A stretch of 49,926 bases of DNA, taken from Bacteroidia bacterium (GTDB lineage Bacteria; Bacteroidota; Bacteroidia; B-17B0; Aurantibacillaceae). The position numbers and the translations under genes were made by a program. The notes beneath the pieces were generated by a model. The model saw only the letters and a list, made by a program, of their open reading frames with translations. It ran no database searches and was not told where the DNA came from. Shown here piece by piece: positions 20,220-23,506 of the stretch (position 1 is the first letter of the stretch; every line of letters starts with the position of its first letter). The stretch lies in contig JAOABO010000001.1 of NCBI GenBank assembly GCA_026418315.1, positions 1 through 49,926 of the forward strand, read 5' to 3'.

Positions 20220-20882
20220 TTATTGACCTGATGTTGCTTTAATAAGTACCGATTCATTGTGGCTATTCAAAAGGTTATTTAAAGTGTTTTTTAATAATTC
20301 ATTTGAGGGATATAAATAAGATTTTATACCTAATTTTTTAGCAGATTCTATGTGGTCTATAGTATCATCAAAATATACTGTGTGGTTTAAATCAAGATTG
20401 TTTTCTTTTACAATTTTCTGAAACAACTTTGCGTCTGGCTTTCTTAAGCCCATTCTGCATGAATAATAAACTTTATCAAATAATAACTCTAATGATTCTA
20501 TATGGTGTTTTTGCTGAAGCATTTCTTCAAAACATTGAATATGTGTTTCACAAGTATTGCTCAATAAAATAAGACGATATTGCTTTGAAAGATGATGTAA
20601 AAATTCTATGTTTTCTTTTGGAATAGCTAACAACATGGCGTTCCATGCTTCTTTAAGATAATACAAGTCCTTTTCAAACGACAACAAATCCTGTAATTCT
20701 TCAAAAAACTCTTTTTCAGTTATTTTGCCCATCTCAAATTTTTGAATAAGCTGATGTGGATATCCAAATTGCATCCACTCTTTAATGTCTTTATTGGTGT
20801 ATTCCAAGATTTTTTGTCGGGTTGCTTCTGTATTAAGAGGTAGTATAACACCCCCTAAATCAAAGATAATAGTTGGTCTCAT
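20220..20882 (-). CDS. HAD-superfamily hydrolase (subfamily IA-like)
   Basis: The motif I-like N-terminus is IIFDLGGVI, with LLSNT (motif II) and FDDT (motif IV-like). It has an ATGA overlap with glyA. Confidence 0.7.
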
Positions 20883-22156
20883 AAATCTGAAAATAAAGGA
20901 TATTTACTCATCATTTGATTGACTTTCTTTTTAATTTTTGAAAGTGCTTTAGGATTATTTTTATTTCTGATAGTTTCATCGATTAACTCCACAATCTTTA
21001 TGCAATCTTTTTCTTTTAATCCCCTGGTAGTAATGGCAGCGGTTCCTATTCTTATGCCAGATGTAATAAACGGCGATTTGTCATCAAAAGGGACCATGTT
21101 TTTATTTACTGTAATATCTACTTCTCCTAATAATTTTTCTGCTTCTTTTCCTGTAATATCTTTGTTTCTCAAATCAATAAGCATCAGGTGATTATCCGTT
21201 CCGCCCGAAACGATGTGATAGTTCTTTTCAATCAGTGCTTGGGCCATAGCTTTGGCATTTTTTGTTACCTGAATAATGTAATAGAGATATTCATCTGTGA
21301 GTGCTTCAGCAAATGCTACTGCTTTGGCAGCAATAATGTGTTCAAGTGGTCCTCCTTGTATGCCTGGGAAAACAGCACTATCCAACAGAGCACTCATCAT
21401 TTTAATTTCACCCTTTGGTGTTTTTTCTCCAAAAGGATTAGGAAAATCTTTTTTCATCATAATCATCCCTCCACGAGGTCCCCTTAATGTTTTATGGGTT
21501 GTAGTAGTAACGATGTGACAATGCAATAAGGCATCGTTTAATATTCCTTTAGCTATAAGTCCTGCAGGATGCGATATGTCTGCCAACACTATGGCATTTA
21601 CCTTATCGGCTGCTTCTCTGACCAAGGCATAATCCCAATCTCTTGAATAGGCCGAGGCGCCTACTATTACCATCTTTGGTTTTTCATCTATTATTTGATG
21701 ATATAGTTTTCTGAAATCTATTAAACCCGTTTCTTTTTCAACACTATAAAATAATGGAGTATACAACTTACCTGAATAATTAACCGGTGAACCGTGTGTA
21801 AGATGTCCTCCATGAGATAAGTTCAATCCCAGAATTTTATCTCCCGGCTTTAAGCAAGCATACATGACCGCTGCATTTGCCTGTGCACCAGAATGTGGCT
21901 GTACATTGACCCATTCTGCACCAAATAATTTTTTTGCTCTGTCAATGGCTAATTGTTCTATTTTATCTACCACTTCACATCCTCCGTAATATCTTCTTCC
22001 AGGATAACCTTCTGCATATTTATTCGTTAATACACTTCCCATTGCTTTCATCACTTGTTTACTCACATAATTTTCACTGGCTATTAACTCAATACCTCTC
22101 AGCTGCCTCTCTTCTTCTTCTTTGATGTACTTAAAAATCTGTGTTTCTTTTTTCAT
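20879..22156 (-). CDS. glyA: Serine hydroxymethyltransferase
   Basis: Contains ELIASENY and the PLP-lysine block [14 protein letters not shown]. The start is re-called at [11 protein letters not shown] (ATG at 22156), because the longer track ORF would swallow a -7 box and has no family-like N-terminus. Confidence 0.95.
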
Positions 22157-22631
22157 GATGATGTAATTTGTTTTTATCCCACAAATATAATGCAAATAAT
22201 ACAAAGCTGATAAGTGGTGATTGTGCAAGACCCATTAATCCACGACTTAAGGAATATTCGGTTTCGTTGAGTTTCTGATGAAAATAATACGCGTATAGCA
22301 TTAATATGATACTTAAGGCAAAAAGAAAAATATATGAAATGATTAAAATTCGGATATAAAAAGCATAAACCTTCATCTGCTTTAAAAAGTAAAAATTGAG
22401 TATAAAATATATTATTACAAAAAGAAATGTGAGTGGATATTTGATGTAGTACAAAGTGGCATGTGAAAATTGAGTAAGCCATCCAAAACCATAAGGAATA
22501 GGCATTGTTGTGTTTTTGTAATATTTGAAATAGATAACATTATTGATATTTACAAACATATACTCTCTGAACAACCCCAACAAAATAAATAATATTAAAA
22601 ACAGCGAGATTTTGGTTATGATGAATCGCAT
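22131..22631 (-). CDS. Polytopic small membrane protein, probably the exosortase F system-associated protein
   Basis: 166 aa with about 5 hydrophobic helices. It starts 4 nt after the stop of the XrtF-like gene. My recollection is that XrtF is always paired with such a protein (Haft and colleagues' exosortase survey). The call rests on position and topology only. Confidence 0.5.
22182..22189 (-). promoter_or_regulatory. Candidate -7 box (TATATTTG) for glyA, embedded in the upstream membrane-protein gene
   Basis: Plus-strand CAAATATA equals minus-strand TATATTTG, 26 nt upstream of the ATG at 22156. Confidence 0.4.
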
Positions 22632-22635
22632 TGAT

Positions 22636-23205
22636 TTAAGCGTATTTATTTACCCACCACATCCACAACATAAAAATATAGGCATATACAAGAAAAGTAA
22701 ATACATAAGTATGATTAAATTCCAGCCATTCCGGTTTATAATAAGTAATAATGGTAAGTCCTACTACTCTTAAAACATTGATTACATGGATTGTAAGAAT
22801 ACCAAAAGGAACAAACCACCATTTATCTCTTTGATTACCGGGAAAAGCAAGGATAAAAATAGAAAAAATAATAAACAAACTCATAGCATCACAGGCCTTT
22901 CCCACCCATACACCTATGGAGCCATGAATGCCTATTACCTGAAAGTCATTAACATCTGTTGTTTTAAAGGTATTAAACTTCATTCTGTTTAATATCTCAT
23001 CAACATTTTCAATAATGACTCTTATGACATACTCATCAAATAATGTATATTTCTTTAAAACCAATTCGTATAAAGTAAAACTCAAAAAATAAAGTATGGA
23101 AGCAGTAAAAACAAATTTGATTCTCGGGTCAGAAAAGTTCAGCTTACTCTTTTTATTCTGAACTTTCTGTTTGTCCATTATTTCGTCTGGCTTTGAACTT
23201 ATCAT
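22636..23205 (-). CDS. xrtF: Exosortase family protein, XrtF-like
   Basis: 189 aa polytopic membrane protein. Candidate catalytic residues occur in the exosortase order: Cys (VGKACDAMS), Arg (INVLRVVG), His (EFNHTYVF). Small size and Bacteroidota context fit the XrtF subfamily. The start could instead be the Met at 23178. Confidence 0.65.
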   Translation of the reverse strand: MISSKPDEIMDKQKVQNKKSKLNFSDPRIKFVFTASILYFLSFTLYELVLKKYTLFDEYVIRVIIENVDEILNRMKFNTFKTTDVNDFQVIGIHGSIGVWVGKACDAMSLFIIFSIFILAFPGNQRDKWWFVPFGILTIHVINVLRVVGLTIITYYKPEWLEFNHTYVFTFLVYAYIFMLWMWWVNKYA

Positions 23206-23401
23206 AAGATTTTTTTACACCATACAAAGCACCCGCTGCAATTAAAAAACTTACTCCCCCGTCAATAGGAATACATGGTGGTGGCCAGCATGGAGGAGGT
23301 GGAGGAGGAGGTGGTGGTGGCGCTGCACCAAAACTCACAAACACAACAAGAAAAAACACAATTGTCAAAAAAACAGGTTTATATGATTGAATACAGAACA
23401 T
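23153..23401 (-). CDS. 82-aa precursor: signal peptide, poly-proline/Cys segment and P-I-D-type C-terminal sorting signal (candidate XrtF substrate)
   Basis: MFCIQSYKPVFLTIVFFLVVFVSFGAA-PPPPPPPPPP-CWPPPC-IPIDGG-VSFLIAAGALYGV-KKSYDKFKARR-NNGQTESSE. This follows the tripartite exosortase-signal layout of a short motif, a TM helix and a basic cluster. The start is re-called from 23419 to 23401 because the -7 box at 23417-23424 overlaps the upstream ATG. The 3' end overlaps the xrtF ORF by 53 nt, out of frame. Confidence 0.6.
   Translation of the reverse strand: MFCIQSYKPVFLTIVFFLVVFVSFGAAPPPPPPPPPPCWPPPCIPIDGGVSFLIAAGALYGVKKSYDKFKARRNNGQTESSE
23276..23320 (-). repeat. Simple-sequence GGN/CCN tract encoding P10-C-W-P3
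   Basis: The plus strand at 23291-23320 reads TGGAGGAGGTGGAGGAGGAGGTGGTGGTGG, which is ten consecutive Pro codons on the minus strand. Three more TGG (Pro) codons lie at 23276-23284. Confidence 0.9.
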
Positions 23402-23416
23402 ACATTTTATTTTCTG

Positions 23417-23424
23417 CAAATTTA
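23417..23424 (-). promoter_or_regulatory. Candidate -7 box (TAAATTTG) for the poly-Pro ORF / xrtF operon
   Basis: Plus-strand CAAATTTA equals minus-strand TAAATTTG, 16 nt upstream of the ATG at 23401. Confidence 0.4.
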
Positions 23425-23506
23425 AGGAAAAAATAATGAAATAAAAAATCTATACAAAAACTATTAAAAATAAAACATAGACAAAATGCTCAATCAGAAT
23501 TTTTAT

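Follow-up and report, generated by a model that had tools for sequence, protein, structure and literature searches.

The window analysed here is a stretch of 49,926 nucleotides (nt) from contig JAOABO010000001.1 of a Bacteroidia bacterium (Aurantibacillaceae; assembly GCA_026418315.1), and the subject of this report is a very small gene on its minus strand, called the mini-gene below, together with the exosortase gene that it overlaps. The minus-strand genes at this locus are tightly packed and run in the order mini-gene, xrtX (overlapping), a membrane-protein partner (after a 4-nt gap), glyA (26-nt overlap), a HAD hydrolase gene, and a Wzc-like gene. Judged by sequence, the first three appear to form a three-gene cassette, an instance of the PID-CTERM/exosortase X system of Bacteroidota. 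This system already has curated entries in NCBIfam and Pfam and a RefSeq name, and the window member is slightly divergent. We consider it likely that the 82-amino acid (aa) open reading frame (ORF) is a real PID-CTERM mini-protein gene whose product is the dedicated, one-to-one substrate of an XrtX-type exosortase, encoded in this cassette and cleaved by the mechanism set out below. A first-pass annotation of the window had arrived at a dedicated exosortase substrate with minimal cargo, and that much of its interpretation stands, but the family it named, XrtF, has to be replaced by XrtX.

The mini-gene and its family

The mini-protein precursor has the sequence MFCIQSYKPVFLTIVFFLVVFVSFGAAPPPPPPPPPPCWPPPCIPIDGGVSFLIAAGALYGVKKSYDKFKARRNNGQTESSE, and direct reading finds in it a tripartite C-terminal signal and, by visual inspection, an N-terminal signal peptide, with SFG|AA following its hydrophobic region. 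Every sequence feature listed by the first-pass annotation (the ORF, Pro10, CWPPPC, IPIDGG, the helix, the basic cluster, the overlap, and the upstream box) is present (Table 1). Its proposal that the C-terminus is an exosortase-type sorting signal is likewise upheld, as PID-CTERM models exist (NF046080 and PF28310) and the mini-protein passes the cutoff. Against the NCBIfam hidden Markov model (HMM) NF046080, PID_CTERM, it scores 45.8 bits where 26 is required (E = 3.7e-12), with residues 45 to 68 aligned to model positions 2 to 25 of 25. The window mini-protein (P0049) and its homologues also carry a precomputed match to Pfam PF28310, again PID_CTERM; a scan with a Pfam release older than this entry returned no match for the mini-protein. 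In RefSeq, a family member from Hugenholtzia roseola (WP_035758140.1) is named "PID-CTERM protein-sorting domain-containing protein."

Homologues of the mini-protein fall into 137 clusters at E ≤ 1, and the 120 listed are all between 54 and 121 aa long and all contain CWPPPC. In these 120 the invariant block, PPCWPPPC[IV]P[IV]DGG, precedes the helix and the basic tail. What separates it from the signal peptide is a variable linker, proline-rich to glycine-rich, and so the emphasis first placed on the polyproline tract was misplaced: it is the block behind the tract that is conserved. In close relatives (P0050-P0074) the number of prolines in unbroken succession ranges from about 7 to 13, with PPPPGGGG-type linkers in place of the run in P0068, P0071, and P0073. 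This variation suggests that the linker is slippage-prone in length and weakly constrained.

The 12 codons of the core block occur in 77 distinct nucleotide versions among 79 copies, and the residues of CWPPPC.P.D (C, W, P, P, P, C, P, and D) are unchanged in all 79, with all synonymous codons in use. Counted by codon position, 3, 2, and 11 of the 12 codons are variable at the first, second, and third position, respectively. Judged by these substitutions the mini-gene is under purifying selection at the protein level, and the small proline-rich ORF is a real gene.

Translation of this gene is more likely to start at ATG 23401 than at TTG 23419. The latter falls within the TAAATTTG box and was rejected for this reason and because homologues have N-termini that match in length the product beginning at ATG 23401. 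The box matches the Bacteroidota -7 promoter consensus TAnnTTTG and may act as the promoter of the mini-gene. Of 79 orthologous loci, 21 have the strict TAnnTTTG consensus within the 60 nt that precede an in-frame ATG, whereas background frequency would predict about 4%. At its other end, the mini-gene overlaps xrtX by 53 nt if the first xrtX ATG (23205) is used and by 26 nt if the second in-frame ATG (23178, MDKQK...) is used. A lipoprotein signal was considered for the mini-protein and rejected, there being no lipobox and the first Cys lying 12 residues past the likely signal peptidase I site. No second PID-type signal was found in the window by a six-frame regular-expression scan or by a custom HMM scan. 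On the opposite strand, a 53-aa antisense ORF (23275-23436, plus strand; MVVASMEEVEEEVVVALHQ...) mirrors the proline tract and the signal peptide and is unsupported as a gene.

Table 1. Features of the cassette and of its neighbours, in window positions
Feature	Position	Strand	Remarks
PID-CTERM mini-protein gene	23153..23401	-	82-aa precursor; ATG 23401, TAA stop 23153-23155
Signal peptide of the mini-protein	23327-23401	-	N-terminal hydrophobic region
Pro10, ten consecutive Pro	23291-23320	-	residues 28-37
CWPPPC	23273-23290	-	residues 38-43
IPIDGG	23255-23272	-	residues 44-49
Hydrophobic helix VSFLIAAGALYGV, 13 residues	23216-23254	-	residues 50-62
Basic cluster KKSYDKFKARR	23183-23215	-	residues 63-73; 9 residues from the C-terminus
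TAAATTTG, match to Bacteroidota -7 promoter consensus TAnnTTTG	23417..23424	-	last base 16 nt upstream of the A of the mini-gene ATG
XrtX-type exosortase gene	22636..23205	-	189 aa from ATG 23205, or 180 aa from ATG 23178
Conserved exosortase codons Cys/Arg/His	22891-22893, 22768-22770, 22711-22713	-	C96, R137, H156
166-aa polytopic membrane protein, probable XrtX-associated partner	22131..22631	-	ATG 4 nt past the xrtX stop
glyA, serine hydroxymethyltransferase	20879..22156	-	overlaps the partner gene by 26 nt
Wzc-like polysaccharide co-polymerase/tyrosine autokinase, 787 aa	17853..20216	-	Pfam Wzz + GNVR + AAA_31

The exosortase, its partner, and the conservation of the cassette

The enzyme encoded next to the mini-gene scores best against NF046081, exosortase X, at 161 bits, yet this is 9 bits short of the cutoff of 170. 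The second-best family is XrtF (TIGR04128), with 83.1 bits where 90 is required. The protein does pass the exosortase/archaeosortase signature TIGR04178 (56.4 bits, cutoff 23) and, narrowly, Pfam PF09721 (26.0 bits, cutoff 25.7). The identification of the protein as an exosortase in the first-pass annotation is therefore sound at the level of the signature, but its assignment to XrtF is not. XrtX was the top model for all 10 exosortase homologues tested, with scores of 154 to 224 bits, and since the HMM scores favor XrtX throughout, the enzyme is by sequence XrtX-type and not XrtF. The close relatives of the window enzyme score 160 to 166 bits, placing the whole clade just under the cutoff, and the curated models for XrtX and its partner appear slightly narrow.

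Three residues of the enzyme, C96, R137, and H156 (numbered from MDKQK), are invariant in an alignment of 21 sequences that reaches down to 35% identity. According to Haft, Cys, Arg, and His form the suspected catalytic triad of exosortases and archaeosortases. Conservation of these residues in XrtX implies that the enzyme has a substrate. The AlphaFold2 model of the exosortase is confident (mean predicted local distance difference test score, pLDDT, of 86) and depicts a helical membrane protein, in which five long helices are accompanied by a β-hairpin. A search of the sequence against the PDB gave no match at E ≤ 10, and a Foldseek search of the PDB with the model gave none at E ≤ 0.001, the best template modeling (TM) score being about 0.29.

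The third gene is probably an XrtX-associated membrane protein. It aligns with 141 of the 147 positions of NF046082 (assoc_w_XrtX) at 31.9 bits (E = 9.3e-8), short of the cutoff of 75, and NF046082 was the sole family reported for it by NCBIfam at a maximum E of 10. The exosortase F-associated model was absent from this result, which leaves no place for the earlier description of the gene as an exosortase F system-associated protein. The proteins found at the equivalent position beside canonical XrtX enzymes in two other loci, L081 and L089, score 73.2 and 41.2 bits and are thus also below 75. The sub-cutoff scores explain why NCBI naming is generic for these genes and why older mini-gene records read "hypothetical protein."

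Synteny of the cassette was surveyed in 80 loci, obtained by scanning one genome per species with the XrtX alignment; all are XrtX-like and nearly all come from Bacteroidota metagenome-assembled genomes. In 77 of the 80, the gene immediately preceding the exosortase gene on its strand is an intact mini-gene with CWPPPC and P-x-D, spaced between -40 and +188 nt from the exosortase match, and a homologue of the partner follows XrtX in 72. Where a PID-CTERM ORF is present there is exactly one, and no locus among the 80 has a second copy. The canonical XrtX loci L081 and L089 show the same gene order as the window, with mini-gene, XrtX, and partner in succession. By the criterion of Haft, "dedicated" sorting systems have one enzyme and one target encoded by adjacent genes, and the synteny and the single PID-CTERM ORF per locus fit this description. 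The view of the mini-gene as the dedicated partner of the adjacent exosortase, put forward before any other locus had been compared, has thus held up.

Three of the 80 loci depart from this pattern. In L028 (3671-3967) the mini-gene is disrupted, with TAA in place of the Trp codon of CWPPPC and Tyr in place of the second Cys (PTC*PPPYIPIDGG), while the remainder and the downstream XrtX are readable; either the copy is a pseudogene, or an error was made in sequencing or assembly. No PID-CTERM ORF was found in the XrtX loci L062 (3-4025) and L072 (3-3542). Both of these contain a very large ORF of more than 1100 aa on the same strand, ending shortly before or at the start of xrtX.

The wider PID-CTERM family and the gene neighborhood

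A profile made from the C-terminal domain only (IPIDGG to the end) was searched against 1.84 billion representative proteins and matched 1689 representatives at E ≤ 1e-3. All but five of the best 150 of these 1689 matches are 36 to 121 aa long. The five larger proteins (351-416 aa; P0171, P0174, P0190, P0208, and P0264) were considered as PID-CTERM proteins with cargo and rejected, as they match the helix-plus-basic part only, from profile positions 9-12 to 31-32, in two to three repeated copies (e.g., GGVALAAGAAYGAKKLHDKKKKKK). No P-x-D-G-G motif was seen in the inspected stretches of these five. Across 262 mini-proteins the median length is 75 aa, and the segment from the N-terminal hydrophobic region to P-x-D has a median of 23 residues, 29% of them Pro and 13% Gly. 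By these sequence measures PID-CTERM proteins are essentially without a cargo domain family-wide, a conclusion that rests on the best 150 of the 1689 matches, so that rare large members are possible. The "extremely minimal cargo" that had been noted for the window thus extends to the family, and a "protein-sorting" signal can be nearly an entire protein.

The cysteines are less widespread than the sorting signal. CWPPPC is found in 134 of the 262 mini-proteins. A different Cys pair (CWPEPC, CGGPFGxVC, or another) occurs in 25 more, 8 contain a single Cys, and the remaining 95 contain no Cys. From this distribution CWPPPC is the mark of one large subfamily and not a universal signal. In L089, a canonical XrtX (218.5 bits) and a partner gene lie beside a Cys-free mini-gene (...EPPEPETPIDGG), and this pairing led us to reject the idea that recognition by XrtX requires CWPPPC as an extension of the signal.

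Beyond the cassette, two further genes recur. The Wzc-like protein of the window matches TIGR01007, polysaccharide biosynthesis tyrosine autokinase, with 128.5 bits (cutoff 108), and a Wzc-like gene lies within 4 kb of the cassette in 76 of the 80 loci. Two arrangements account for these: in 69 loci the gene is divergent and upstream of the mini-gene, and the 7 closest relatives share the arrangement of the window, with the gene downstream, behind glyA and the HAD gene. Among more distant loci, the gene order in L089 is XrtX-partner-Wza-Wzc-glycosyltransferase, L091 has a divergent Wzc gene with an ABC-2 exporter, and L093 has a convergent one. Polysaccharide export is the classical genomic association of exosortases. 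That the Wzc-like gene is kept through rearrangement provides moderate evidence, at the level of gene order, for a functional link of the cassette to polysaccharide export. The second recurring gene, glyA, is beside the cassette in 78 of the 80 loci and directly behind the partner also in the distant loci L081 and L091. It is near the cassette in L093 as well, and within 5 kb of a lone PID-CTERM mini-gene in Hugenholtzia roseola (L087). It is a conserved neighbor with no obvious functional reason to be there, and no link is claimed.

A different neighbor is seen in other lineages: in six independent contexts, the mini-gene is preceded on its strand by a very large gene (1000-3000 aa) (L081:1757-4903, L082:352-3972, L084:1-3431, L087:1-4893, L089:361-4971, and L093:1865-4924). 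The distance between the two genes is about 25 to 110 nt in five of these and about 570 nt in L084. The large gene carries a type A C-terminal domain of the type IX secretion system (T9SS; Por_Secre_tail) in five of the six, the L084 gene giving only a faint Ig_7 match. This arrangement is not present in the window or in L001-L080. It may hint, from position and domain content, that T9SS cargo is linked to the XrtX product.

Proposed processing, alternatives, and significance

Direct support exists for the reality of the gene, its family membership, its synteny, the conserved catalytic residues of XrtX, and the absence of a cargo domain family-wide, and on this basis a route for the mini-protein can be proposed. 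The precursor would be exported by Sec and cut by signal peptidase I around SFG|AA. The C-terminal hydrophobic stretch and the Lys/Arg cluster would then anchor it in the inner membrane so that IPIDGG lies at the periplasmic face, where XrtX, using Cys96, Arg137, and His156, would cut at or near P-I-D. It is possible that XrtX simply releases a peptide of about 18 to 22 residues, AAPPPPPPPPPPCWPPPCIP(ID). Alternatively, the enzyme may hand the peptide to an acceptor in the envelope, for which a lipid head group or a polysaccharide from the neighboring Wzc-type machinery would be candidates. In either case the product would be a short proline-rich peptide and not a folded surface protein, bearing in the CWPPPC subfamily an invariant Cys-x4-Cys knob. 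Candidate roles for the two invariant cysteines include a disulfide, inter-chain links, metal binding, and lipid modification as proposed for MYXO-CTERM signals. We infer export, cleavage, the acceptor, and the state of the cysteines, with cleavage and transfer modeled by analogy on ArtA/PGF-CTERM and PEP-CTERM.

Known sorting systems provide a frame for this proposal. The closest is the curated PID-CTERM/exosortase X system itself (NF046080, NF046081, NF046082; PF28310), which has the same three-gene layout, a sorting domain whose cutoff the mini-protein passes, and the best model for the enzyme; it is restricted to Bacteroidota, as is the cassette of the window, and its canonical loci L081 and L089 share the gene order. 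The window clade differs from canonical XrtX in its enzyme scores of 160 to 166 bits against the cutoff of 170, a partner far below cutoff, an N-terminal extension of XrtX by 20 to 30 residues that overlaps the mini-gene, and a long polyproline tract before the invariant CWPPPC. Exosortase A (EpsH) and its PEP-CTERM targets share the signal peptide plus tripartite C-terminal signal, the Cys/Arg/His triad, and an association with polysaccharide export genes (Wzc, Wza). However, in PEP-CTERM systems one enzyme serves dozens of cargo proteins, which are often large, the motif is P-E-P, and the exosortase is much larger, whereas the window system is one-to-one, with a P-I-D-G-G motif and no cargo domain. 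Archaeosortase A of Haloferax volcanii and its PGF-CTERM targets belong to the same enzyme superfamily and have the same signal architecture, but are archaeal and differ in their large S-layer glycoprotein cargo, prenyl-derived lipid, and motif. Within the superfamily, experiments have shown loss of the C-terminal helix and attachment of a lipid for archaeosortase A alone, and it is because of this precedent that a transfer-to-acceptor step is proposed for XrtX. The JDVT-CTERM and MYXO-CTERM/myxosortase systems, which are dedicated and have Cys-bearing signals, also consist of one enzyme and one target encoded by adjacent genes. Their targets are full-size, however, and are cut by CPBP-family glutamic intramembrane proteases and not by exosortases.

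Among the alternatives, the one that fares best would have the mini-protein remain uncleaved, as a bitopic subunit or regulator of a complex of XrtX and its partner, with CWPPPC-PID as a docking or pseudo-substrate element. The overlapping or tightly spaced genes suggest co-translation in a fixed proportion, the invariance takes in CWPPPC beyond the canonical signal, and cargo for delivery is absent, all of which such a subunit would accommodate. We nevertheless regard it as unlikely. A motif, helix, and basic cluster at the C-terminal end of a protein with a signal peptide are the hallmark of a sortase-type substrate, the conserved catalytic residues call for such a substrate, and the Cys-free mini-gene beside a canonical XrtX indicates that CWPPPC is dispensable for pairing.

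A second alternative keeps the substrate and changes the enzyme, making the latter XrtF and the mini-protein the long-sought substrate of exosortase F. XrtF and the exosortase F system-associated protein of Flavobacterium johnsoniae (TIGR04128; Fjoh_1448/1449) are likewise from Bacteroidota; there too the exosortase is small (about 175-190 aa) and its partner, encoded next to it, is a small polytopic protein. Deletion of xrtF or of the partner gene in F. johnsoniae greatly reduces biofilm and reduces surface colonization, and no substrate of XrtF was known as of 2024, when the question was still open. A small membrane-protein partner and substrates yet to be found are thus features of XrtF too; the XrtF model is the second-best match to the window enzyme, and many homologues carry the JGI label "exosortase family protein XrtF." The HMM scores nonetheless lead us to reject this assignment, which we rate as very improbable. 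XrtX is ahead of XrtF by about 78 bits in the window and by 72 to 157 bits in all 10 homologues tested, the XrtF cutoff is missed, and the third gene matches the XrtX-associated model and not its exosortase F counterpart. With an XrtX-type enzyme and an XrtX-associated-like third gene, the mini-gene does not solve the XrtF-substrate question, as the first-pass annotation had suggested it might.

It has also to be considered whether the mini-ORF acts mainly as a regulatory leader, in which ribosome stalling on Pro10 and PPP, dependent on elongation factor P (EF-P), tunes expression of the overlapping xrtX. The ten consecutive prolines and PPP, the overlap of 26 to 53 nt, and the retention of PPP in all listed CWPPPC homologues would suit a leader, but the long proline tract is not conserved (many members have, e.g., QPVGGPPPCWPPPC instead), nor is the overlap, as gaps of up to 188 nt occur. 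Selection at the protein level acts on the signal peptide, the PID motif, the helix, and the basic tail, and some family members are found away from any exosortase. A pure stalling leader has little chance of being correct given these conserved protein features, and stalling would be a secondary effect at most. Finally, the possibility that the ORF arose by chance in AT-rich DNA or is an antisense-strand artefact, to which the small size of the gene, the "hypothetical protein" label of close-relative homologues in older NCBI records, and the silence of older Pfam might have pointed, is refuted beyond reasonable doubt: the family E-value, the 137 homologous clusters, uniqueness in the 50-kb window, the preponderance of third-position changes among the variable sites of the codons, and conservation in 77 of 80 loci take the mini-gene far beyond chance.

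The reading of the mini-protein as a dedicated, cleaved substrate of XrtX has points weighing against it as well. The hydrophobic stretch of the mini-protein is only 13 residues long, or 19 if IPIDGG is counted. The enzyme and the partner both score below their cutoffs (161 against 170 and 31.9 against 75). No exosortase was found within 4 to 5 kb of three Cys-free mini-genes (L082:4001-4213, L084:4001-4180, and L087:5001-5207), and adjacency is therefore not universal in the wider PID-CTERM family; candidates for processing these three are an XrtX encoded elsewhere, XrtY, and XrtF. Conservation of the neighboring Wzc and glyA genes could be inherited synteny and not a functional link. A search of the available literature on PID-CTERM and XrtX or exosortase X found no relevant paper or experiment.

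A wider reading can be offered more tentatively. XrtX could be a peptide-maturation enzyme, its sole product being a proline-rich peptide of about 15 to 25 residues joined covalently to a lipid or to the polysaccharide handled by the neighboring Wzc-type machinery. We would sooner doubt this than assert it. Attachment would be at the new C-terminus and possibly also through the cysteines, and in the subfamily of the window the peptide would bear the invariant Cys-Trp-Pro3-Cys. If true, the result would be a peptide-capped or peptide-anchored envelope polymer, and the cassette would be the simplest system in which to find the attachment target of an exosortase, as the whole substrate fits intact mass spectrometry. 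More broadly, related exosortases of Bacteroidota, XrtY or XrtF for example, could find their missing substrates in the many Cys-free PID-CTERM mini-proteins encoded away from XrtX.

We know of no demonstration of a substrate for a Bacteroidota exosortase. With one enzyme, one substrate, and a product of about 20 residues, the cleavage site, the acceptor, and the state of the cysteines would be directly measurable by mass spectrometry, making the PID-CTERM/XrtX cassette a very tractable route to exosortase chemistry, and especially to the target to which a cleaved substrate is attached.

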